Assembly: GCA_030747775.1 (NCBI GenBank)
Contig: JASLKB010000001.1
Coordinates: 1,803-65,802 of the forward strand
Reading direction: 5' to 3'
Source: Acidimicrobiales bacterium
Lineage (GTDB): Bacteria; Actinomycetota; Acidimicrobiia; Acidimicrobiales; MedAcidi-G1
Length of the DNA stretch: 64,000 nucleotides
In this document: positions 8,715-60,888 of the stretch, in pieces
Layout: each line of letters begins with the position of its first letter
Position numbering within the stretch: the first letter of the stretch is position 1
Translations under genes and position numbers: made by a program
Notes under the pieces: model-generated
Database searches by the model: none
What the model was told of the DNA's origin: nothing
The model's input: the letters and a program-made list of their open reading frames with translations, nothing else

Positions 8715-9950
8715 ATGAACGACACCGACACGACCGAGGCGACCGGCCCCATGCGGGGGGTGAAGGTCGTTGAGCTCGGCGTATGGGTCGCTGGACCGGC
8801 GGCCGGTGGGATCTTGGCCGACTGGGGTGCCGACGTGGTCAAGATTGAACCTCCGTCGGGGGACCCGTGCAGGCTCTTCCAGCAGATGCTGGGCGGGGAC
8901 ATGCCCACCAACCCGATCTTTGAGATGGACAACCGCTCCAAGCGGGGTATCGCTGTGGACCTGGGATCCGAGGGGGGCCTGGCCATCGCCATGGATCTGC
9001 TAGCGGACGCCGACGTATTCATCACCAACCTCCGGGTTGGCGCCCTCCAGCGCCTCGGCCTGGATCACCCGTCCATCGCCGAACGATTCCCTCGTCTCGT
9101 CTACTGCCTGATCTCCGGCTACGGCTCCGAGGGTCCTGACGTCGACCGGGCTGCCTACGACATCGCCGCCTTTTGGGCCCGCTCGGGCATCGCCGGCCTG
9201 CTGACCGCCCCGGGAGGAGACCCCCCGTTCCAGAGAGGCGGGATGGGCGACCACTCCACCGGCCTGTCGGCGACCGCCGCGGTGTCAGCCGCCCTCTTCG
9301 ATCGAGAACGAACTGGTCGGGGCCAACTGGTCGAGACCTCGTTGATGAGACAGGGGGCCTACACCATCAGCTTCGACCTGAATCTGCTCCTCATGTGGGG
9401 CGCGACACTGGAGGTCGGCGAGCGAACTTCGATGGGCAACCCGGCCATGAACAACTACACGGCGGGCTGCGGTCGCCGGTTCTGGATTGTCGGCCTGGAG
9501 GGTGAGCGCCACTGGCCACCGCTGGCCCGAGCGGTCGGCCATCCCGAATGGTTGGACGACCAACGGTTCGCCCGGCCCCGAGAGCGAGCCTCCAACGCCT
9601 CGGACCTGATCGGCATGCTGGACGCGATCTTCTCCACCAGGACGTTGGACGAGTGGGCCGAGGTGTTCTCCGAAGAGCCTGACTTCTTCTGGGCCCCAGT
9701 CAACTCTCCCGAAGAGCTGCTTGCCGACCCGGCGTTCCACGGGTCGGGAGCACTTGTGGACGTACCCGACGAGGTGTCATCCACCACCATGGTGGCCAGC
9801 CCGGTCGACTTTCGGGGTACCCCGTGGGCGGCCCGGTCCACCGCTCCGGCCATTGGCCAGCACACCCGTGAAGTGCTCGCCGAACTGGGCCGTTCCGACG
9901 GCGAGATCGACGCCCTGTTGGCGTCCGGGGCGGTCGTCGAGTCGGGCTAG
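8715..9950 (+). CDS. family III CoA-transferase (CaiB/BaiF)
   Basis: Canonical N-terminal RGVKVVELGVWVAGPAAGGILADWGADVVKIEPPSGDPCR. ATG 8715 was chosen over the ORF-track start at 8640. Confidence 0.88.
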   Translation: MNDTDTTEATGPMRGVKVVELGVWVAGPAAGGILADWGADVVKIEPPSGDPCRLFQQMLGGDMPTNPIFEMDNRSKRGIAVDLGSEGGLAIAMDLLADADVFITNLRVGALQRLGLDHPSIAERFPRLVYCLISGYGSEGPDVDRAAYDIAAFWARSGIAGLLTAPGGDPPFQRGGMGDHSTGLSATAAVSAALFDRERTGRGQLVETSLMRQGAYTISFDLNLLLMWGATLEVGERTSMGNPAMNNYTAGCGRRFWIVGLEGERHWPPLARAVGHPEWLDDQRFARPRERASNASDLIGMLDAIFSTRTLDEWAEVFSEEPDFFWAPVNSPEELLADPAFHGSGALVDVPDEVSSTTMVASPVDFRGTPWAARSTAPAIGQHTREVLAELGRSDGEIDALLASGAVVESG

Positions 9951-10900
9951 TCGCTTGACAGTGCGTCGATGGCCGACCGGAGAGCCACCAGGTCGACGTC
10001 TCGGGCTGCAGCGCACGAGGGAACGAGGGGGGCGAAGATCCAGTAGCCGTGGACCTGTTCCTCGTGGTGGATCACCTCGACCGGTACGCCTGCCGCCCGG
10101 AGCACCTCGGCATAGGCCAGACCCTCGTCCCGCAGCGGATCGAAGCCGGCAACCGTGACGGTGGCTGGAGCGACCCCGGAGTGGTCTGCGGCACGGATCG
10201 GTGCCGCCAGCGGTTCGGCAGTCAGGTCCTGATCCCCGGCGAGGTTCTCAGCGAACCACCGCATGGTGGCCAACTCGAGGAAGTTGCCCTCGGCGTTCTC
10301 CTCCCGCGAAGGCCACCGGCCCGAGCCGTAGTCGAAGTCTGTGGCCGGGTAGACCAGGAACTGGTGGGCGATCGTCGGAGCGCCCCGATCACGGGCCATC
10401 AGCGACAGCACCGCACTCAGGTTTCCGCCCGCACTGTCACCGGCCACCACCAGGCGTTCAGGGTCGACTCCGAGATCGGAGGCATGCTCGTGCACCCAGC
10501 ACAGGGCTGACCAGGAGTCCTGCACGGCCGCCGGAAACGGGTGCTCGGGGGCCAGCCGGTACTCGAGGGCCAACACCACCACACCACAACTGGAGGCGAC
10601 AGCTCGGCACTGTTCGTCGTATCCCTCGAGATCACCGATCGTCCACCCGCCTCCGTGCAAATAGAGGATGACGGGGACCCCGTCACCTAGATCCGCGGCC
10701 CGGTAAATGCGAATCGGCAGGTCACCGTCAGGCCCGGGAAGAGTGCTGTCCAAGACCTCGGCCACCTCCGCTGCCAGATGACGCCCAGCCGTGCAGATGG
10801 CTCGATAGGACTCCCTCATCTCATCCGCATTGATGGCTGCGCCGGGCACCCGGTGACCAGCCAACTCGAGTAGGGGCTGCAGGTCTGCAGCGACAGGCAT
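9947..10900 (-). CDS. alpha/beta hydrolase, hormone-sensitive-lipase-type esterase
   Basis: HGGGW oxyanion motif (VILYLHGGGWTIGD) and GDSAGGNL nucleophile elbow. ATG 10900 has a GAGGA RBS. The extension to 11176 was rejected. Confidence 0.88.
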   Translation of the reverse strand: MPVAADLQPLLELAGHRVPGAAINADEMRESYRAICTAGRHLAAEVAEVLDSTLPGPDGDLPIRIYRAADLGDGVPVILYLHGGGWTIGDLEGYDEQCRAVASSCGVVVLALEYRLAPEHPFPAAVQDSWSALCWVHEHASDLGVDPERLVVAGDSAGGNLSAVLSLMARDRGAPTIAHQFLVYPATDFDYGSGRWPSREENAEGNFLELATMRWFAENLAGDQDLTAEPLAAPIRAADHSGVAPATVTVAGFDPLRDEGLAYAEVLRAAGVPVEVIHHEEQVHGYWIFAPLVPSCAAARDVDLVALRSAIDALSSD

Positions 10901-10916: not shown

Positions 10917-11840
10917 TCAGGCGCCGGACTCGGCGGCCAGCCTGTCGGACTCGTACTGGTATTGGGGGATGTCGACCCTCTCATTGCGGGTGTCGGAGCG
11001 GGCCCCGGATTTGGACTCGGCAGCCTCGGTTTCCACCCCTGTGGGTGTGGCCCGGCGCTTCCAAGAACCGTTGACGTCCCAAGCCACCCCGGTCGGAGCG
11101 ATGGTGCCGGGCTCGTCCATGGCCTCGGCCGCCCGGAAGGCCCGACGCAACAGGTCTCGTTGGAACTCCGGCTCATGGGGCCGACCCACGGTGTGGCCCA
11201 GCGGCAGGTCGGAAAAGGCGGCTCGTGGCGGATTGACCGATGCTGTGATGCTGTAAGCGGACGTGAGGCAGAGCGTCGGCACCCCGGCGGCCTCCAGCGC
11301 CCTCGCTACCAGACCCACGGTCTGGTGGCAGACCGGTCAGACCGGCACCAGCAGGGCTAGGTCGACGTCCATGGCCGTCACCTCGGCGACGATTGCCGGG
11401 GCGAGTTCCTCGGTGGCTCGACGTACCGAGTAGATGCCACCCATGCAGCCCAGCGCCGTTGACGCCAGGCCACCGAGCACACCCTCGTCGACTAGTTCCC
11501 GCAGGCGGTCAACCGGGAAAACGATGTTGGGGTCCTCACGGGCCGGCTCGAGGTCGTAGGCGAAGTGGGTGACCCGGATGTCCGTGGCCGGGTCGGCCGA
11601 TGGAATCCTTCGCACTCCCGTGTCGTCCTTCCAGTGGAAGGCCGTCTGGCCCTCTCGGTAGGCGCCGCCGGAGCCAACCAAGGCGACGGTGGACTCGTTC
11701 AAAGGACGGGACAATGGTGTCCACGGCGGCGGTTCGGGTAGTGCAACCCACTGGTAGGGCGGGTAGCCAAGGGCGTCGTAACGGTCACGGGTCAGGGCGA
11801 TGTAGTCGACCGGTGCGGATCCGTCCAAGGGTGCTCCCAT
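10917..11840 (-). CDS. GrdB/PrdB-family reductase-like protein, probable selenoprotein (in-frame TGA at 11339..11337 read as Sec)
   Basis: ORFs 11337..11840 and 10917..11318 share one frame (522 nt apart). They are separated by one TGA plus 6 sense codons. Read-through gives LLVPV-U-PVCHQTVGLVARALEAAGVPT, matching the U-x-x-C ... E-x-A-G-(I/V)-P arrangement I recall for GrdB. Confidence 0.65.
11309..11336 (-). promoter_or_regulatory. candidate bacterial SECIS element (mutually exclusive hairpins just 3' of the UGA)
   Basis: The mRNA reads UGA-CCGGUCUGCCACCAGACCGUGGGUCUGG. One hairpin is CGGUCUG/CAGACCG (loop CCAC). The alternative is CCAGACC/GGUCUGG (loop GUG, 19-21 nt after the UGA). Confidence 0.45.
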
Positions 11841-11935
11841 GCCTCCATCGTGGCATCCACGGCAGACCGAGTCGGGACCGGGCGGAAAGCCCGCCAGACA
11901 GACGTCGGGTCAGCCCCGACGAACCCACGAAAGTG

Positions 11936-11970
11936 CGAGTATCGACACTGAGAGTAGATACTCGTAGAAT
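11936..11970 (+). promoter_or_regulatory. putative sigma70-type promoter with embedded 8-bp inverted repeat (MerR operator candidate); leaderless transcript
   Basis: TCGACA (11942-11947), 17-nt spacer, TAGAAT (11965-11970), then ATG at 11977, 7 nt later. Inverted repeat CGAGTATC (11936-43) / GATACTCG (11957-64). Confidence 0.45.
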
Positions 11971-11976
11971 CCGGAT

Positions 11977-12762
11977 ATGGCATTCGCTGATCCCCAGACC
12001 GGGAGCGACGACGCCGGGTTGACCGTCGACCAGGTAGCCGCGGCCGCTGGCCTAGGCATCGACACCGTGCGCTACTACCAGCGCCTGGGACTGATCCCGG
12101 CCCCGATCCGGAAGGGTCGTCGAGCCTCCTACCGCGAAGACCACGTGGCACGACTGGCCGAGATCCGTCGGCTCGCCGACGACGGGTTCACTCTGGCCCA
12201 GATTGGAGCCCTCGGTGGCGAACCCGTGGCCACCGATCCCGCCGCTGACCTCCGCCGCCTGGCCGTCGACGCGCTGGACCGCAGTCTGTCTAGAGCTGAG
12301 GTGGCCGACCGGGCCGGCGTCCCCGAGAGCCTGGTTGCCTTGCTCGTCGACAATGGACTACTTGCTCCCCTCTCTGATGGACCGGAACCCCGATTCGACG
12401 ATGGGGCGGTCTCCATGGTCCGCGCGGGCCTGGCCATCAGCGCAGCGGGTGTCCCCCTGGACGAACTGGTCGCTTTGGCCACCGACCATGGCGCCAATGT
12501 GGACGAAGTAGTGGAGCGAGCCATTGACTTGTTCGAGCGTCATGTCCGGACCGGGAATGCTGAACCGTCCCCTCAGGAACTAGTCGAAGTGGTCCACTCG
12601 CTGCTCCCAGCAGTTACCCGGCTAGTGGCCCAGCACTTTCACCGGACTTTGGTAGCCCGAGCCCGCGATCGAACCAGCGCCGACGGGGAGGAAGCCGGCC
12701 TGACCAAGGCCCTCCTGGCTGCCGACGCCGACCGTCTAGAAGTGGACGTCCGGTGGCGCTGA
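11977..12762 (+). CDS. MerR family transcriptional regulator (long C-terminal extension)
   Basis: N-terminal HTH LTVDQVAAAAGLGIDTVRYYQRLGLIP. 261 aa. Confidence 0.85.
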   Translation: MAFADPQTGSDDAGLTVDQVAAAAGLGIDTVRYYQRLGLIPAPIRKGRRASYREDHVARLAEIRRLADDGFTLAQIGALGGEPVATDPAADLRRLAVDALDRSLSRAEVADRAGVPESLVALLVDNGLLAPLSDGPEPRFDDGAVSMVRAGLAISAAGVPLDELVALATDHGANVDEVVERAIDLFERHVRTGNAEPSPQELVEVVHSLLPAVTRLVAQHFHRTLVARARDRTSADGEEAGLTKALLAADADRLEVDVRWR

Positions 12763-14081
12763 CCTCCGACGCCGGCGACCACTCCCTCCGGGCAACGACT
12801 ATCGAGGTCCACACTGGACCGGCCACCGACCCCCTGGCCTGGCTAGCCGTCGCACCGGATGACGACGAGGCCTGGTTCTGGGAGGTCCCCAACGACGACA
12901 CGTCATGGACCGGGCTCGGCTCGGTCGTCGTCGTCGACGTCGAGGGGGCCGACCGCTTCGCTGAAGCCGCCTCCGGAGCCTCTGAACTAGCGGAGTCCAT
13001 GACCCTCATCGCCCCGAATGGGGCTCCTCACCCGAGACTCGCTGCCGGATTCTCCTTCGACGACCATCTACCCGAAACAGCCCACGCCTGGGGTTCCTTC
13101 GGCGCCGGGCGCCTCGTACTACCGGCGGTCCAGGTGCTCCGCCACGCTGGACGGACCTGGGTAACTCGAATCGACGACAGGGACCGACCCACGCCGTTGC
13201 TCGCCCCGCCGACAGGCCCCGTCGATGTGCCACCGAGCGAGCCGGCCGACCATGCCGACCCCGTCGCCCGCCAGCACTACCGGCACCTGGTCCGCCTCGC
13301 TCTGGAAGCCATCGACCGGGGCGATCTGGACAAGGCCGTGCCCTGTCGCTCGCTCCATGTCGACCACCGACCAAACCCGATACCACTTCTAGCCGCCCTC
13401 CGAGCCACCTACCCGGCGTGCGCCACCCTCGCCGTCCGCCCCGCCGGAGGAAACGCCTGCTTCGTGGGAGCCACACCCGAACGCTTGGCTGCCGTGCATG
13501 CCGGCCACCTCCGGACGGCCGCTCTGGCCGGTTCCGCCCCGCGGGACCCCGACCCGGCTATCGACGCAGCCCTCGGACAGGGTCTCCTCACCAGCCCCAA
13601 GGAGCGGGCCGAGCACGCCGTGGTGGTCGACGCCGTGGACCGAGCGCTGGCTGAGCTTGGCGTGGCCGACCGCCACCCCAGCGACCCCGTGCTGCTTCGA
13701 CTCCACGGCATCCAGCACCTTCACACCCCCATCGACGCCGAGTTGCCCGACGGTGTCGGCCTGCTGGACCTCGTCGGCGCTCTCCACCCGACGCCGGCGG
13801 TGGCTGGCCACCCCGGCGGACAGGCCGCCCACCTCCGAGCCGAACACGAGGGCATGCAGCGGGGCTGGTTCGCCAGCCCGGTCGGCTGGATGGACGCCAC
13901 CGGCGACGGGGAGTTCCGAGTCGCCCTCCGGACTGGACTCGTCCACACCGGCGGCACCACGCTGTACGCCGGAGCCGGCGTGGTCGCCGGCTCCGATCCC
14001 GATCGAGAGTTGGCCGAAACCGACGTCAAACTGCGAACCCTTCTCGGCCTGGTCCTGGCCACCAGCGAGGCAAAGCCGTGA
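12753..14081 (+). CDS. menF: isochorismate synthase
   Basis: Chorismate-binding motifs GATPERL, SPKERAEHAVVVD, HPTPAVAG and RGWFASPVGW. Lies directly upstream of menD. GTG start overlaps the MerR stop by 10 nt. Confidence 0.85.
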   Translation: MALTSDAGDHSLRATTIEVHTGPATDPLAWLAVAPDDDEAWFWEVPNDDTSWTGLGSVVVVDVEGADRFAEAASGASELAESMTLIAPNGAPHPRLAAGFSFDDHLPETAHAWGSFGAGRLVLPAVQVLRHAGRTWVTRIDDRDRPTPLLAPPTGPVDVPPSEPADHADPVARQHYRHLVRLALEAIDRGDLDKAVPCRSLHVDHRPNPIPLLAALRATYPACATLAVRPAGGNACFVGATPERLAAVHAGHLRTAALAGSAPRDPDPAIDAALGQGLLTSPKERAEHAVVVDAVDRALAELGVADRHPSDPVLLRLHGIQHLHTPIDAELPDGVGLLDLVGALHPTPAVAGHPGGQAAHLRAEHEGMQRGWFASPVGWMDATGDGEFRVALRTGLVHTGGTTLYAGAGVVAGSDPDRELAETDVKLRTLLGLVLATSEAKP

Positions 14082-15838
14082 ACACCTTCCCGTCGACTGA
14101 TCCGATGGCCACCCAGGCGTGGTGCCGCGCCCTGTTCGCCCAACTTGTGGAGTGCGGGGTGGCCCACGTGGCCGCCTCCCCAGGCTCGCGGTCCACGCCG
14201 ATGACGGTGGCTGCCGACCGCACTCCCGGCCTCGAAGTATCGATGCACCTCGACGAGCGAGCCGGCGGGTTCTTCGCCCTCGGACTGGCCCGCGCTACCG
14301 GCCGGCCGGTAGCCCTGCTATGCACCTCGGGCACAGCCGCCGCCAACTACCTCCCGGCGATGGTCGAGGCCTTCCACTCAGGAGTACCTCTGGTCGCTCT
14401 CACCGCCGACCGGCCACCTGAACTTCAGGGAGTGGGTGCCCCCCAAGCAATTGACCAGGACGGGATCTACGGCAGCCACGTCCGATGGGCCATCACCACC
14501 GCTGTAGCTGGCACCGAGTCTTCCGGCGAGGCCGCATCGGTAGCCCACCAGGCCGTGGTGCGTGCCACCAGACCGTCTCCCGGACCGGTCCACCTCAACG
14601 TGCCGCTACGTGAACCCTTAGAGCCCCCTGCCAATGATCCACCCCCAACCGGACTGCTACCCCTCCCGCCGGACCGGGTACCGATTGAGGCGGGCTGCCT
14701 GAACGAGCTAGTGACAGGCCCCGCCCGGCCCGAGCGGGGCCTGATCGTGGCCGGCCCCATGGACCCCACATCCGCCGGGATCACCGCCCTCGCTGAGCTG
14801 GCCCGCCGGACCGGCTGGCCGATTCTGGCTGACCCGGTCTCCGGTCTTCGTCGCGGACCCCACGTCAGCCATGCCCCTGTGCTGGCTACCGGCGACCACC
14901 TGCTGCGGTCCGAATGGGCTGATGACCTCCGGCCTGATGTTGTCGTACAGCTGGGTGCCATGCCGACTAGCAAGGGCTACCGACTGTGGCTGGACCGGGT
15001 GGGCGTCGGACGTCTCATAGCCGTCGACCACCTCGGACGATTCCCCGACACCGCCCGCCTGGTGACCGACCGGGTAGCCGCCGAGCCAGGGCGAGTCGCC
15101 ACCCACCTCGTTGACCGACTGGCCGACCTGGCAACGGGTGATGACGGTACGAGCGACTGGACCCGGACCTGGATGACCGCTGAGGTGGCCGCCACGAGCG
15201 CGGTTGCCGATTTAGTGGCAGCCGCCCCGTTCGACGAACCGGGTGTGGTGGCCGCGCTGGACGCCGCCCTCCCGGACACAGCAACGCTGGTGGTCGGCAA
15301 CTCCATGCCGCTACGGGACGTGGATGCGTTCCTGCCCGTCGACCACCGGAACTGGTCGGTGCTCGGCAACCGGGGCGCCAACGGTATCGACGGCCAGGTG
15401 TCCACAGCGATCGGCATGGCCGCCGGTTCGGACGCGCCCACCGTGCTGCTAACCGGTGACCTGACCCTGCTACACGACCTCGGCGGCCTCACCGCGGCCC
15501 GCCGACTCGGCGTGGACCTGACGGTGGTGGTGGTCGACAACGACGGCGGTGGCATCTTCTCATTCCTACCTATCTCTGAAGAGAGCCACATCGACCATCA
15601 ACGCTTGTTCCACACACCCCACGGCCTGGACCTGAGCCATGTCGCTGTCTTGGCCGATGCCACCCTCTACAAGCCAACCGACCGTCCCTCACTGGAGGCC
15701 GCTCTAGGGGTCACGGTCAAAACGTCAGGACTGCACCTCATCCATGTACGGACCGACGCCTCCACCAACGTCAGGCTCCACCGCGAGGCGGCACAAGCCG
15801 TCGATCACGCGCTATGTGTAAAGGAAATATGCCAGTGA
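14078..15838 (+). CDS. menD: 2-succinyl-5-enolpyruvyl-6-hydroxy-3-cyclohexene-1-carboxylate (SEPHCHC) synthase
   Basis: ThDP-enzyme motifs TSGTAAANYLPAMVEAFHSGVPLVALTADRPPEL and GDLTLLHDLGG ... VVVDNDGGGIF. 4-nt overlap with menF. Confidence 0.92.
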   Translation: MNTFPSTDPMATQAWCRALFAQLVECGVAHVAASPGSRSTPMTVAADRTPGLEVSMHLDERAGGFFALGLARATGRPVALLCTSGTAAANYLPAMVEAFHSGVPLVALTADRPPELQGVGAPQAIDQDGIYGSHVRWAITTAVAGTESSGEAASVAHQAVVRATRPSPGPVHLNVPLREPLEPPANDPPPTGLLPLPPDRVPIEAGCLNELVTGPARPERGLIVAGPMDPTSAGITALAELARRTGWPILADPVSGLRRGPHVSHAPVLATGDHLLRSEWADDLRPDVVVQLGAMPTSKGYRLWLDRVGVGRLIAVDHLGRFPDTARLVTDRVAAEPGRVATHLVDRLADLATGDDGTSDWTRTWMTAEVAATSAVADLVAAAPFDEPGVVAALDAALPDTATLVVGNSMPLRDVDAFLPVDHRNWSVLGNRGANGIDGQVSTAIGMAAGSDAPTVLLTGDLTLLHDLGGLTAARRLGVDLTVVVVDNDGGGIFSFLPISEESHIDHQRLFHTPHGLDLSHVAVLADATLYKPTDRPSLEAALGVTVKTSGLHLIHVRTDASTNVRLHREAAQAVDHALCVKEICQ

Positions 15839-16665
15839 GCACTGATACCGCCGGACTCCATGTCGAGCTCGACGGTCCAGTTCACGAAGTGGATGCCCGT
15901 CACCCAGTGCTGACGCTCCACGGCTTCACAGGCTCCACGGCCACCATGTGGGCCCTAGTGCGCCCGTTGACCGAGACCCGGCGGGTGGCCGTCGTCGACC
16001 TGCCCGGCCACGGGCTCAGCACCATCACCAACGATGCCCACGCCTTCGGATTCGAACACACGGTCGATGCGGTGGCCGCTGCCATCGACAGCCACAGCCT
16101 TGGACCCGCCCACGTGGTTGGCTACTCGATGGGTGGCCGGGTGGCCCTCGGCTTAGCCGTCCGCCATCCGGGACACGTGGCCTCTCTCTCGTTGATCGGG
16201 GCGTCGCCGGGCCTGTCCGACCCGGTGGAACGGGCGGCCCGCCGACGATCGGACGACGAACTGGCCGACGACCTACTCGAAGACGGCCTGACCGCCTTCG
16301 TGGACCGGTGGATGGCCAGCCCTCTGTTCGCCAGTCAGGTTCGCCTGGGTGCCGACGCCCTGGCCGATGCTCGTACCCAACGCCTAGCCAACGACCCGGA
16401 GGGGCTAGCTGGCAGCCTCCGGGGTGCCGGGACCGGTGCCCAACCGTCGTACTGGCATGACCTGGCCGGAATCGCCGCGCCGGTGCTGCTGGTGGTGGGC
16501 GACGAGGATCCGAAGTTCCGGGCCATCGCCATGCGTATGGCCGCCGGACTGGCCCGGTCGGCCATCGAGGTGGTGCCCGGCGCCGGCCACGCCGCCCATC
16601 TTGAGAATCCCGACTACGTGCGGGCTGCCATCAGCGAACTGGTCGACGAGGTCGACGGCCGATGA
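15829..16665 (+). CDS. menH: SHCHC synthase-type alpha/beta hydrolase
   Basis: LHGFTGS and GYSMGGRVAL nucleophile elbow, positioned between menD and menC. Start is ATG 15829 or GTG 15835; both overlap the menD stop. Confidence 0.78.
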   Translation: MPVSTDTAGLHVELDGPVHEVDARHPVLTLHGFTGSTATMWALVRPLTETRRVAVVDLPGHGLSTITNDAHAFGFEHTVDAVAAAIDSHSLGPAHVVGYSMGGRVALGLAVRHPGHVASLSLIGASPGLSDPVERAARRRSDDELADDLLEDGLTAFVDRWMASPLFASQVRLGADALADARTQRLANDPEGLAGSLRGAGTGAQPSYWHDLAGIAAPVLLVVGDEDPKFRAIAMRMAAGLARSAIEVVPGAGHAAHLENPDYVRAAISELVDEVDGR

Positions 16666-17690
16666 CACGCAGTACCCGTGGCCGAACCGAACTGGGCGAC
16701 GTCGATCTACCGGATGTCCGCGAAATCAAGATCGAACGGACGAAGTTGGCCTATCGGTCACCGATCAGTACTGCGCGCGGGCCAATCGACCGCCGTGAGG
16801 TCGTGGTGCTCACTCTCACTGATGGCAAGGGACGCGTCGGCCTCGGTGAAGCCGCACCGTTGGTCAACTTCACCCCGGAGTCGGTCGACGAGGCCGAACT
16901 CGCCATTCATCGATGGGCCGATGACGGATCAACGCCGGCGGGCTCGCCCACTGCCCGGGCTGCCATCGATGGCGCCCTGGTGGACCTGGCGGCGCGGGCG
17001 GCTAGTCGACCCGTCCACGACCTACTAGCCCCCGGGAGCTCCGGAATCGTGCCCGTCTCGGCCTTAGTTGGCGGCAATACACCCGACGATCTGGCTACCG
17101 CCGCTGCCGAGGCGGTAGCCGGTGGACATCGGACGATCAAGGTGAAGGTGGCTGCCGGTCCGTTCTCTGCCGATTTGGCCCGCCTCACCGCCGTTCGGGA
17201 GGCCATCGGGGATGCACGACTCCGTATCGATGCCAACGGGGGGTGGGTGCCCGATGAGGTATCCGAACATCTGATTCGGCTGGCCGACCTCGACCTCGAA
17301 CTGGTGGAGGAACCGGTGGCCGGGCTCGAAGCCCTTGCTGCAGTCCGGGCAACCTCACCGATCCCGGTTGCCGTCGATGAATCCGCTCGGACCATCGACG
17401 ACGTCCGCCGGGTCATCGCACTGGGTAGCGCCGATCTTGTGGTCCTGAAGCCCTCCGCTCTGGGAGGTCCACTGATGACCGCTGAAGTGGCCCGAGTGGC
17501 CACCGAGGCCGGCCTGGGCCTTGTCGTGACGTCCCTGCTCGACGGCTCCGTTGGCATCCGCGCCGCGGCACACCTGACGGCCGCCCTCGGAGCGTTGGAC
17601 CCGGCTCCCGGCCTGGCCACCGCAGTACTCCTGACCGCAGACAGCGGTCCGTCACTACTTCCGACCGAGGGCGCTCTGGTCCTCGACTGA
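16662..17690 (+). CDS. menC: o-succinylbenzoate synthase (enolase superfamily)
   Basis: Enolase-superfamily segments RIDANGGW and LELVEEP, in men operon context. 4-nt overlap with menH. Confidence 0.85.
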   Translation: MTRSTRGRTELGDVDLPDVREIKIERTKLAYRSPISTARGPIDRREVVVLTLTDGKGRVGLGEAAPLVNFTPESVDEAELAIHRWADDGSTPAGSPTARAAIDGALVDLAARAASRPVHDLLAPGSSGIVPVSALVGGNTPDDLATAAAEAVAGGHRTIKVKVAAGPFSADLARLTAVREAIGDARLRIDANGGWVPDEVSEHLIRLADLDLELVEEPVAGLEALAAVRATSPIPVAVDESARTIDDVRRVIALGSADLVVLKPSALGGPLMTAEVARVATEAGLGLVVTSLLDGSVGIRAAAHLTAALGALDPAPGLATAVLLTADSGPSLLPTEGALVLD

Positions 17691-58183: not shown

Positions 58184-59371
58184 TCAGTTGCCCGCTGCGT
58201 CTAACCCGCGGGCAAAATCGGCCATCAAGTCATCCACGTGTTCCAGACCGCATGACACCCGAACGGTCCCTTCCCCGATGCCCGACGCTTCGAGTTCCTC
58301 GGGGGTGAGCTTTACGTGCGTGGTGGTTGCTGAATGGCACACCAGGGTCTCCGGACCGCCCAACGAGGTGGCTTGGCGGGCAATGGAGGTGGCCTCCACG
58401 AACCGACGACCAGCGTCAACCCCCCCGGCGAGGTCAAAAGTGAGCTGGCTACCCATCGACCGCATCTGGCGCACGGCCAGGTCATGCTGGGGGTGGGACG
58501 CCAGTCCCGGGTGACGCACACCGAGCACCTTGCTGTGCCCCTCTAGGAAATCAGCGAGGACCAGTGACGTCTCGGACTGTTGACGGAGCCGGGCTCCGAG
58601 GGTCCGAACCCCTCGATGAGCGTTGTACGCGTCGTATGGCGAGGCGTTCGCTCCCTGGAGGACGGCGAACCCCCACAGCCACGAGATGAGGTCATCGGAC
58701 CCGGCGACAACCCCGAGGGTGGCGTCGTTGCTCCCGGCGATGCCCTTGGTGGCCGAATGAAGTACCAGATCAACGCCGTGGTCCAACGGGCGTTGGCCCA
58801 GCGGCGTGGCGAACGTGGAATCCACCACGGTCAGGGCGTTGGCGATCGCCCCCAGGTCGTCGAGGTCGACGAGATCCAAACGGGGATTGGCCGGCGTCTC
58901 GGCAAAAACCAGCTTCGTTCTGCCGGGCACCACGGCCTCGGCGAACGCCCCGGGCATCGTCCCGTCCACGAACGTCACGTCGATCCCCATACGGGGACAG
59001 ACGGTCTGCAGGAAGATTTGGGTACCGGCGTACCTCTGACGCTGGGCCACCACGTGGTCCCCTGATGAACAGACGCCCAGAACGACTGTGCTGAACGCCC
59101 CCATGCCCGAGGCAAAGGCCCGGGCGGACTCGGCGCCCTCCAACTCGGCGATCGTTGCCTCGAAGGCGTTGATGGTGGGGTTTCCGAATCGACTGTAGAA
59201 ACGCTCGGGGGCGATAGCGGTCGCCAGGCGACGACCCTCGTCCACGGTGTAGAACTCGAAGGTTGACGTCGGGTACAGCACTGGCGCCAGCGACGCCTCG
59301 CCGTCGGCCCGCCCACCCAGCACAGCGGCCGTCTCGGGGTGCAGGGGTTCGCGGCTTCGACTTTCGGTCAT
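58184..59371 (-). CDS. Cys/Met-metabolism PLP-dependent enzyme (cystathionine gamma-synthase/lyase family)
   Basis: YSRFGNPT and HSATKGIAGSND (PLP lysine). ATGA overlap with metX. Confidence 0.85.
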   Translation of the reverse strand: MTESRSREPLHPETAAVLGGRADGEASLAPVLYPTSTFEFYTVDEGRRLATAIAPERFYSRFGNPTINAFEATIAELEGAESARAFASGMGAFSTVVLGVCSSGDHVVAQRQRYAGTQIFLQTVCPRMGIDVTFVDGTMPGAFAEAVVPGRTKLVFAETPANPRLDLVDLDDLGAIANALTVVDSTFATPLGQRPLDHGVDLVLHSATKGIAGSNDATLGVVAGSDDLISWLWGFAVLQGANASPYDAYNAHRGVRTLGARLRQQSETSLVLADFLEGHSKVLGVRHPGLASHPQHDLAVRQMRSMGSQLTFDLAGGVDAGRRFVEATSIARQATSLGGPETLVCHSATTTHVKLTPEELEASGIGEGTVRVSCGLEHVDDLMADFARGLDAAGN

Positions 59372-60633
59372 GTGGACTCCACCTCCCTGAGGAAGACGTC
59401 GAGGTGGGAGCCGACCTCCCGCGTGGCCAGCAGGAACCCGTCGTGGCCGTCGGGACTCTGAATCACATGATGGTCGCAGCGCCCTCCGGCCCGACGGATG
59501 GCGTCACGGAGAACCGTCTGCTGGCTGGTCGGATACAGGGTGTCGGAACTGATGCTTAGGGTGAGCGCCGGCAGGTGGACGAGGCGGCCCACGGCGAGGT
59601 CCATGCCGCCACGATCACGGGCCAGGTCATGGAGGTCCATGACCCGGTTCAAGACGAGGTAACTGTTGGCATCGAAGCGCCGGACCAGCTTCTCGCCGTG
59701 GTAGTCAAGGTACGACTCGACCTGAAACCGATCCCACGGACCAAACAGTGCACGCGGGTCGACGAGATCCCGGGCAAACCGGTTGTCGAATACCTCATTG
59801 CTTCGATAGGTGATCTGGGCTACGGACCGGGCGATGGCCAGACCAGCGAACGGTCCGTCTCCAGGCTCGGCGTCGTAGTAGTCGCCGCCACGGAAACGGG
59901 GGTCGAGGGCCAGCACGGTACGACCTACTGCACTCCACGCCACCTGCTGAGCGCCGGCGGCCAGCGCCGTGGTGATCGGCGCAATGGACCGCACCCGGTG
60001 CGGATACATGACGCCCCACTCGAGGACCTGCATGCCACCCATCGAACCGCCCACCACCGCCAGCCACTGGTCGATGCCCAGGTGGTCCGCCACCGCGGCC
60101 TGACAGCGCACGATGTCGCGGGTGGTGACCGTGGGAAACGATGAGCCGTAGGGGCGACCGGTCGACGGATCTATCGAAGCCGGGCCGGTCGAACCCTGAC
60201 AACCACCGAGAGAGTTCACGCACACCACGAAATGACGGTCGGTGTCGATCCCCCGACCCGGCCCAATCACGCCGTTCCACCAGCCCTCGGTGATGTGACC
60301 GTCACCCGACGCGCCATAGGCATGGCTATCGCCGGTCAGGGCATGGCAGATGAGGATGGCGTTGTCAGCCTCGGGCGACAGCTCTCCCCAGGTCTCGTAG
60401 GCCATCTCGATGTCGACCAGCGCCTCGCCGCTCTCTAGCGCCAGCGGACGCCCGCCACCCACCGAGGTGAACTGTCGTCCGCCCACCGCGTCACCTGGGC
60501 GCCACGCCCCGGTAACCGGAAGGTCGGCCGCATAGGACCGCGGATGGACGGGACCAATCGGGAGCTGGCCGACAGGCGCGTCGACCGACGCGCCAACGGC
60601 GGTTCCGTCGTTGCTCGTCAGTTCGTCCGTCAT
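59368..60633 (-). CDS. metX: homoserine O-acetyltransferase
   Basis: AILICHALTGDSH, GGSMGGMQVLEW and SISSDTLYP. ATG 60633 (GGAGA RBS) was preferred because the ORF-track GTG at 60729 lies inside the riboswitch. Confidence 0.9.
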   Translation of the reverse strand: MTDELTSNDGTAVGASVDAPVGQLPIGPVHPRSYAADLPVTGAWRPGDAVGGRQFTSVGGGRPLALESGEALVDIEMAYETWGELSPEADNAILICHALTGDSHAYGASGDGHITEGWWNGVIGPGRGIDTDRHFVVCVNSLGGCQGSTGPASIDPSTGRPYGSSFPTVTTRDIVRCQAAVADHLGIDQWLAVVGGSMGGMQVLEWGVMYPHRVRSIAPITTALAAGAQQVAWSAVGRTVLALDPRFRGGDYYDAEPGDGPFAGLAIARSVAQITYRSNEVFDNRFARDLVDPRALFGPWDRFQVESYLDYHGEKLVRRFDANSYLVLNRVMDLHDLARDRGGMDLAVGRLVHLPALTLSISSDTLYPTSQQTVLRDAIRRAGGRCDHHVIQSPDGHDGFLLATREVGSHLDVFLREVEST

Positions 60634-60727
60634 GCCGTCTGTCTCCATCGGGACATCCAACGCGCTCGGCGCCGACAGCGTGACCAGAGGGCCAGCCGGC
60701 GGACACTTCGTTGCCCCTTTCGAAGCC

Positions 60728-60811
60728 ACATCCCCACCGTCCCCGGTGGGCGAGCACCTTGGGTGTCCGTCCCAGGTTGCCGGACCCGGTGAACCGGGCC
60801 TCTCGTGATGT
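60728..60811 (-). promoter_or_regulatory. SAM riboswitch aptamer, SAM-I clan (SAM-I / SAM-IV / SAM-I-IV type)
   Basis: The RNA is ACAUCACGAGAGGCCCGGUUCACCGGGUCCGGCAACCUGGGACGGACACCCAAGGUGCUCGCCCACCGGGGACGGUGGGGAUGU. Stems are P1 ACAUC/GAUGU, P2 GGCCCGG/CCGGGUC, P3 UGGG/CCCA and P4 CCCACCG/CGGUGGG. Conserved GAGAGG, GGCAACC and GGUGC are present, and it lies upstream of metX. Confidence 0.65.
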
Positions 60812-60888
60812 CGTTTCCCCAGTGTAGGGGGGCCGACGCGTGGGGACGCCCCTCTGTACCCCTTTGTCCTCCGGCGTCCAGAGAACGC

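Follow-up and report, generated by a model that had tools for sequence, protein, structure and literature searches.

A PrdB-like gene with a conserved in-frame TGA and a predicted selenocysteine in an Acidimicrobiales bacterium

Does a TGA codon that stands between two open reading frames (ORFs) end a protein, or does it encode one of its residues? The question is raised by a locus on the minus strand of a 64,000-nucleotide stretch of DNA (hereafter, the window, meaning the whole stretch that was analysed) from an Acidimicrobiales bacterium of the MedAcidi-G1 lineage (GenBank assembly GCA_030747775.1, contig JASLKB010000001.1, positions 1,803 to 65,802 of the forward strand). Two minus-strand ORFs of this locus, 11337..11840 (ATG start, 167 amino acids) and 10917..11318 (GTG start, 133 amino acids), share one frame, and between them lie a TGA (11339..11337) and the six sense codons CCG GTC TGC CAC CAG ACC. 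The original prediction, made from the DNA letters, took the pair for one gene encoding a selenocysteine (Sec) enzyme that resembles GrdB, the selenoprotein B of glycine reductase. The analysis described here leads, with high confidence, to a joint reading in which the two ORFs form one gene, the UGA is read as selenocysteine by means of an mRNA hairpin, and the product is a stand-alone PrdB-like protein which is neither the B subunit of D-proline reductase nor a glycine reductase.

One gene across a conserved stop codon

The two ORFs are a single gene. Reading through the TGA gives 307 codons and a stop, with the junction ...DLALLVPV-*-PVCHQTVGLVARALEAAGVPTLCLTS... or, in its Sec form, ...DLALLVPV-U-PVCHQTVGLVAR, and the G+C content of third codon positions in the frame of the gene is high on either side of the TGA (0.78 and 0.81). 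Full-length homologues of about 300 amino acids align end to end with the 307-codon product. Recomputation from the sequence reproduced all the coordinates on which the original prediction was built, including the shared frame, the single TGA and the six-codon spacer, and also the spacing it had quoted, namely a Cys followed by E at +12, A at +14, G at +15, V at +16 and P at +17. An ORF check likewise bore out that the downstream ORF has only a GTG (11318..11316) as a start codon, and that this GTG is not accompanied by a ribosome-binding site.

A scan of a genome collection returned 388 loci encoding relatives, and the counts of loci given in this text rest on the best 80 of these 388, among which Acidimicrobiia, Gamma- and Alphaproteobacteria, Myxococcota, Chloroflexi, Gemmatimonadota, Spirochaetaceae, Binataceae and Entotheonellaceae are represented. 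A stop codon occupies the aligned position in 80/80 loci (TGA in 79, TAG in one), and the in-frame sequence PVCHQ[TS]VGL[VI]AR follows directly past the stop in all of them. Wherever the downstream region is complete (77/77 loci), the frame beyond the stop remains open for 127-159 codons and is 43-100% identical to that of the window. The locus therefore has the conserved in-frame UGA and the conserved downstream coding sequence that are looked for in a bacterial selenoprotein gene.

The single TAG belongs to Blastococcus tunisiensis DSM 46838 (NZ_FOND01000003.1; L079:10478-10480), in which it replaces the TGA while both the downstream frame and the hairpin described below are intact. For the Geodermatophilaceae, a tRNA-Sec whose anticodon is CUA has been reported, as have selenoprotein genes with TAG at the Sec site (PMC5330540). 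The stop codon of the present family therefore tracks the Sec anticodon of the lineage, which is hard to explain unless the position is Sec, and the Blastococcus variant is in this sense a neat natural confirmation. The Sec-TAG genes known so far from the Geodermatophilaceae are those for formate dehydrogenase, a UGSC-motif protein and AhpC (PMC5330540), and the Blastococcus orthologue appears to be a further gene of this kind. In the window itself, TGA is the ordinary stop codon of 12 of 18 neighbouring genes, the selenoprotein gene being among those that end with it, which argues that the genetic code has not been reassigned.

The original prediction had suggested, as a check, the alignment of Cys-containing homologues with the TGA, and this alignment shows what is expected of a bacterial selenoprotein. 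Among 14 full-length homologues, the residue at the Sec position is Cys in seven, Thr in three, Gly in two, and Ser or Arg in the rest. The five closest (P0004-P0008, where P denotes database proteins and L denotes loci; 47-50% identity, about 300 amino acids) have Cys in two cases and Thr in three (P0004, P0005 and P0007), with the codon TGC for Cys in locus L081 and ACT for Thr in locus L082. Searched by profile, 1.84 billion cluster representatives yielded 4,953 family members (clusters at 50% identity); in the best-scoring 150 of these the aligned residue is Cys in 103, and the representatives with Cys at the stop include a bona fide PrdB equivalog (P0213). The truncated database entries all end precisely at ...LLVPV. 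Four representatives (P0237, P0250, P0292 and one other) have Trp at the Sec position (VWPVCHQS and similar), and in these entries the TGA was probably translated with genetic code 4 by the gene caller. Rare fusions of a Cys-type PrdB-like domain were also observed (P0192, 805 amino acids; P0189, 514; P0235, 480; P0209, 495), the partners being an AMP-binding (adenylate-forming) enzyme, a protein kinase domain and an HTH_3 domain; these may be real or artefacts of gene calling.

Past the UGA, with an onset at 10 nucleotides (nt), the mRNA is predicted to fold into a hairpin resembling a bacterial selenocysteine insertion sequence (bSECIS). Its sequence, UGC-C-ACCAGACC-GUG-GGUCUGGU-A-GCG, comprises a 3-bp outer stem, an 8-bp core stem (11326..11319/11315..11308; CACCAGACC/GGUCUGGU) and the apical loop GUG (11318..11316). 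In the 80 loci, 95.8% of the pair cells are filled by standard pairs; with the 3' partners slid, the figure is 25-38%. Three of the pairs have undergone compensatory changes (C-G to U-A or the reverse in 27 sequences, G-C and A-U in 5, A-U and U-A in 30), and the observed covariation score was reached by 0/500 shuffles. Some of these changes involve a silent Gly wobble base (GGU/GGA) that pairs with the first base of a Thr/Ser codon, and others go together with an exchange of Val and Ile. The apical loop has G in first place (GUG, GUC or GUU) and holds the GTG that gene callers take as the downstream start. This G lies 19 nt past the UGA, and a stem-loop with an apical G, as in bacterial selenoprotein genes, is accordingly found 3' of the codon; the rule for its distance is reportedly the one used by bSECISearch.

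Family placement and proposed reaction

To which family does this product belong? The family profiles were run with Cys substituted at the internal stop. PF07355 (GRDB) matches residues 46-164 with 34.6 bits, above its gathering cut-off of 22. The best NCBIfam match is TIGR04483, the model for D-proline reductase PrdB (E = 6.5e-42, 143.6 bits, positions 13-227 of 238 in the model), which remains under the equivalog cut-off of 300, while the bona fide PrdB equivalogs P0057 and P0213 reach 397 and 453 bits. The models for the B proteins of glycine, sarcosine and betaine reductases give 38-44 bits against cut-offs of 65-800; TIGR01917 has E = 7e-11 and 41.7 bits against 602.2, and TIGR01918 has 40.4 bits against 65.45. 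Since the best match is PrdB but under the equivalog cut-off, and the GrdB models are weak, the protein is PrdB-like rather than GrdB-like, and an equivalog of neither. The original prediction was therefore right to see a Sec reductase of the GRDB superfamily but not to take GrdB as its nearest relative, and the E-x-A-G-I-P spacing that it cited was recovered in a bona fide PrdB equivalog (P0057). Its further statement that the enzyme is not a glycine reductase stands, as the TIGR01917 and TIGR01918 cut-offs are failed and neither grd genes nearby nor a third Cys were seen.

The closeness to PrdB raises another possibility, that the gene encodes a true PrdB subunit of D-proline reductase whose pyruvoyl partner, PrdA, is encoded elsewhere in the genome. 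TIGR04483 is the best family match and its model is covered nearly in full, in alignments with PrdB equivalogs the Sec falls on the active-site position (C-G-T-C in P0213, R-G-T-C in P0057), and such genes are named PrdB in selenoproteome surveys and in the annotation of the Joint Genome Institute (JGI). The 143.6 bits fall short, however, of the cut-off and of the 397-453 bits of real equivalogs, and the protein has 307 rather than about 240 residues, with a conserved C-terminal extension. Neither the prdA adjacency of a prd operon nor any other prd gene was seen within about 10 kb, and the 80 loci share no neighbour across phyla. The hosts, moreover, belong to lineages of marine metagenome-assembled genomes (MAGs) that are presumably largely aerobic, not Stickland fermenters. 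A true PrdB is for these reasons very unlikely.

The stand-alone PrdB-like protein can be viewed through the AlphaFold model of its Cys homologue P0006 (49% identical; predicted local distance difference test score, pLDDT, 91.2; predicted template modelling score, pTM, 0.91), which has an alpha/beta fold. In this model, the Sec-equivalent Cys168 follows a strand (161-165) and stands just before a helix (169-184), with Cys171 in the first helical turn, a predicted arrangement that is the classical redox geometry of a nucleophile plus a resolving Cys. According to the mechanism proposed, the UGA would be decoded as selenocysteine by Sec-tRNA(Sec) and SelB, recruited by the mRNA hairpin. The 307-residue product is a stand-alone member of a very large family of PrdB-like proteins of about 300 residues, in which the active site (U/C)-P-x-C-H-Q comes behind a beta-strand and at the N-terminal end of a helix. 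If the analogy with PrdB holds, the selenolate may be the catalytic nucleophile that attacks the substrate, Cys171 (Cys+3) would resolve the adduct to give a selenenylsulfide, and a dithiol donor such as thioredoxin would reduce the latter again.

Several observations have to be weighed against this reading of the gene and its product. The actual insertion of selenocysteine is deduced from sequence, and the redox mechanism and the electron donor are proposed by analogy with PrdB only. Genes for tRNA-Sec, SelA, SelB and SelD were not seen in the 64-kb window (ARAGORN, and Rfam for RNA), and ARAGORN did not find tRNA-Sec in the 80 fetched loci, which cover about 20 kb per genome. The hairpin has no match to an Rfam family, apart from chance-level ones at a permissive threshold, Rfam having no model for such a bSECIS. 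Its covariation is partly tied to the Thr/Ser and Val/Ile changes, hence not wholly silent, and two non-Sec homologue loci (two loci only) still form 6 and 9 of the 11 hairpin pairs. A sequence search of the PDB found no relative, and Foldseek, run with the P0006 model, returned nothing significant from the PDB (best E = 0.02, TM 0.16); the fold provides no functional lead. As for the machinery, selA, selB, selC and selD have been reported in a preprint for all 84 complete Actinomarina genomes, and the same preprint places Actinomarina in the order Actinomarinales, sister to Acidimicrobiales; this and the Blastococcus TAG lend indirect support to Sec decoding here.

Two further explanations of the TGA were considered. 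It is highly improbable that the TGA simply ends a 167-residue protein and that the 133-codon GTG ORF is an independent gene or a dead one, even if public gene callers annotate exactly such a split: a fixed stop with the frame and the protein sequence kept beyond it, in 77/77 complete loci across phyla, is incompatible with decay, both parts are one polypeptide in the Cys homologues, the GTG lies inside the hairpin loop without a ribosome-binding site, and the Pfam/TIGR domain spans the junction. There is just as little reason to believe that reassignment of the code, or near-cognate suppression, makes the UGA specify a standard amino acid (Trp, Cys or Gly), as the Trp of four database representatives and the Sec machinery not seen in the window or the 80 fetched loci might suggest, because TGA is an ordinary stop in 12 of 18 neighbouring genes, the hosts belong to many phyla that presumably use the standard code, a dedicated covarying hairpin follows the codon, the switch to TAG occurs exactly in the family whose tRNA-Sec reads UAG, and the Trp entries are most simply taken as gene calls with translation table 4.

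Six independent lines thus point to selenocysteine at the TGA: the conservation of stop and frame, the Blastococcus TAG, the Cys homologues, the hairpin, the absence of reassignment, and precedent. Regarding other selenoprotein genes, two crude scans of the window for split ORFs by codon composition gave only antisense frames or adjacent genes, and both also missed the true gene.

Genomic neighbourhood and possible function

What surrounds the gene might reveal its function. The major ORFs at 0.5-14.1 kb and 17.7-21 kb were compared with Pfam, and those at 14.1-17.7 kb were identified by visual reading as menD, menH and menC. The Pfam neighbours are a TetR regulator, two family-III coenzyme A (CoA)-transferases, an AMP-binding enzyme, an enoyl-CoA hydratase, a thiolase, an acyl-CoA dehydrogenase, a low-molecular-weight phosphatase, a family-IV esterase, a MerR protein, MenF (chorismate-binding, PF00425), a sulfatase-like protein of the metallo-beta-lactamase fold, a hydrolase and a glutaminyl cyclase. 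Genes for PrdA/GrdE, GrdA, GrdC/GrdD and thioredoxin were not seen among these neighbours (Pfam and reading by eye over 0.5-21 kb, the PrdA profile not having been run on every ORF), in agreement with the original prediction. The features of the locus are collected in Table 1.

Table 1. Coordinates of the selenoprotein gene and of adjacent features in the window
Feature	Position	Strand	Basis
Selenoprotein gene, complete, PrdB-like, PF07355 superfamily	10917..11840	-	Translation; TIGR04483 and PF07355 matches; end-to-end alignment with homologues of about 300 amino acids
In-frame TGA, predicted to be read as selenocysteine residue 168	11337..11339	-	Stop codon in 80/80 related loci; Cys in homologues
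TGC codon, partner Cys171 of the U-P-V-C motif	11328..11330	-	PVCHQ conserved in 80/80 loci
bSECIS-like hairpin	11304..11330	-	Predicted fold; covariation across 80 loci
Terminal TGA stop of the selenoprotein gene	10919..10917	-	Translation
Family-IV (hormone-sensitive lipase type) esterase, co-directional downstream	9947..10900	-	PF07859 Abhydrolase_3, E = 1.5e-72
Divergent MerR-family regulator	11977..12762	+	PF13411, E = 2.7e-17; same position in 33 loci
Intergenic element, merR promoter TCGACA-N17-TAGAAT with dyad GAGTA/TACTC in the spacer	11936..11970	+ (promoter)	Promoter scan

The gap of 16 nt between the selenoprotein gene and the esterase gene contains GAGGA five nt before the esterase ATG, and an esterase occupies the same position in 29 Acidimicrobiia loci; the two genes probably form one operon. 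The esterase partner named in the original prediction is thus real, but its association with the gene is conserved within Acidimicrobiia only. The same limit applies among the 80 loci to the whole gene order, in which menD-menF-merR diverge from the gene, the esterase and, in some cases, a CoA-transferase. In Myxococcota the neighbours are a glutathione S-transferase (GST), MAPEG and TauE; in Pseudomonadales the gene stands between rpsB-tsf-pyrH-frr-uppS-cdsA and islands of restriction-modification and Fic genes; and at L085 a ferritin, an aldolase and a sulfatase are found. No neighbour conserved across phyla was found in the 80 loci and, since the neighbours differ between phyla, the gene behaves as a stand-alone unit.

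Some of these surroundings suggest a weak link to carboxylate/acyl-CoA or AMP-binding chemistry. The gene for P0006, the closest Cys homologue, is flanked by that of a family-III CoA-transferase, the stop of one overlapping the start of the other, and by that of a nitroreductase, and the three share a strand (L081:4859-7689). In L082, patatin and acetyl-CoA-synthetase-like genes lie upstream of the gene for the Thr homologue, and about ten non-actinobacterial loci have genes for enoyl-CoA hydratase or acyl-CoA dehydrogenase in their vicinity. Two of the fusions are to AMP-binding enzymes, fusion being rare beside the at least 7,944 clusters of a sister subfamily. At two loci of this sister Cys-type subfamily (L086:6888-8728 and L087:7856-9912; Pseudoruegeria and a metagenomic contig), an ORF of 140-153 amino acids and then a GMC-family oxidoreductase gene are convergent to the PrdB-like gene.

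With regard to regulation, the promoter scan upstream of merR gave 10/12 matches where 0.2 were expected, and the motif recurs in about 25 Acidimicrobiia loci. The spacer of this promoter also contains an 8-bp inverted repeat, CGAGTATC...GATACTCG, and 6 nt lie between the end of the promoter and the merR ATG, a distance that suggests leaderless transcription of merR. On the opposite strand, the sequence of the same element offers a candidate MerR-type long-spacer promoter, TTCTAC-N20-GATACT, facing the selenoprotein gene. A hexamer (C/G)A(C/G)GAT is located at 11841..11852, exactly 6 nt upstream of the start codon of the selenoprotein gene, and is also present in many high-GC relatives (L002, L003, L012, L023, L027, L028 and L036), in place of which the low-GC relatives L034-L042 have an AGGAG Shine-Dalgarno sequence; it could be the -10 box of a leaderless mRNA. 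On the other side of the intergenic region, merR, menF, menD, menH and menC (11977..17690) are co-directional with overlapping ends, menF starting at 12753 and merR ending at 12762, and hence the MerR regulator appears to head an early menaquinone operon in this lineage. Elsewhere in the window, a SAM-I/IV (S-adenosylmethionine) riboswitch (RF01725; 47.8 bits against a gathering cut-off of 41.1) is found at 60697..60816 on the minus strand, upstream of the minus-strand ORF 59368..60729.

A tentative proposal, which has the odds against it, is that the (U/C)-P-x-C-H-Q proteins of about 300 residues are no subunits of proline reductase but form a class of PrdA-independent, stand-alone selenol/thiol reductases with a substrate of their own, tied to ester/acyl metabolism. 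If it were true, the gene of marine Acidimicrobiia would work on a compound derived from an ester or an acyl group, in concert with the co-transcribed esterase and perhaps also the neighbouring CoA-transferase and acyl-CoA genes, and the family would rank among the surface ocean's most abundant uncharacterised selenoenzymes.

Annotation and comparison with known systems

How has this gene escaped routine annotation? Database fragments of its N-terminal part (about 170 amino acids) are called 'D-proline reductase (dithiol) PrdB', and those of the C-terminal part (126-133 amino acids) 'hypothetical protein'. The split entries are P0002-P0054 and P0071-P0184, P0071 being 100% identical to the C-terminal piece; an exact-sequence database look-up gave no record for the N-terminal ORF. 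Because gene calls split the gene in two, the selenoprotein is missing from the routine annotation of marine Acidimicrobiia and of many other MAGs. The label 'proline reductase' is probably wrong for the host organisms, and 'D-proline reductase' would falsely imply a Stickland-type metabolism in marine lineages that are taken as aerobic. The family, large (4,953 clusters, as counted above) and abundant in the ocean, is uncharacterised in both structure and substrate.

Among the characterized relatives, GrdB, GrdF and GrdH, the selenoproteins B of glycine, sarcosine and betaine reductases, belong to the same PF07355 superfamily and have Sec at the homologous site. The match is, however, confined to the C-terminal half of the 430-residue GrdB, with scores far under the cut-offs. 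The motif of GrdB is UxxCxxC (PMC13188914), whereas that of the window protein is U-P-V-C-H-Q-T, which lacks the third Cys, and grdA, grdC, grdD and grdE are not found near its gene.

The nearest characterized protein is PrdB, the 26-kDa selenoprotein subunit of the D-proline reductase of Clostridium sticklandii and C. difficile. Homology extends over nearly the whole length of PrdB, and Sec stands at the homologous UxxC position, followed by the same E-A-A-G-[IV]-P helix. The window protein differs in its length, 307 against about 240 residues, owing to a conserved C-terminal extension of about 60 residues that carries a PQYQ motif; in its motif, U-P-V-C-H-Q against (U/C)-G-T-C-H-R; and in its genetic context, a stand-alone gene in a marine lineage without prdA or other prd genes nearby.

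Another group is that of the Cys-type homologues, which have Cys (or Thr, Ser or Gly) where the window protein has Sec and are equally uncharacterised. The stand-alone proteins of about 300 amino acids among them (e.g., P0006, CPVCHQ) have the same length and architecture as the window protein. The sister 'NCPVCHQ' subfamily, annotated as 'glycine reductase' in Pseudoruegeria, Rubrivivax and Burkholderiaceae, is 33-36% identical to it and comprises at least 7,944 clusters, nearly all of about 300 residues.

Finally, selenoproteins of this description have been known from the ocean for some time. With 42 genes, 'Proline reductase PrdB' (pfam07355, UxxC) ranked third in abundance among the selenoprotein families of the Sargasso Sea (Zhang et al., 2005; PMC1088965), and the GOS (Global Ocean Sampling) selenoproteome included 235 Sec and 110 Cys members of 'PrdB' UxxC (Zhang and Gladyshev, 2008; PMC2398784). 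Both papers treated these genes as proline reductase and addressed neither the missing PrdA nor the function, and reviews up to 2026 list only 'D-proline reductase, TIGR04483, UxxC', in which forms without PrdA are not set apart. The window gene shares all the descriptors of these genes (pfam07355, UxxC, abundance in the surface ocean, Cys homologues), and many of its relatives come from Tara Oceans and other marine MAGs; from this likeness, which is one of description and not of sequence, the identity of the two families can be inferred. The original prediction of an uncharacterised Sec enzyme therefore holds for the enzyme, but its family had already been catalogued in the Sargasso Sea and GOS surveys. 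To a specialist the existence of the gene is no surprise. It adds one more member to a selenoprotein family that earlier catalogues record as common among ocean bacteria.

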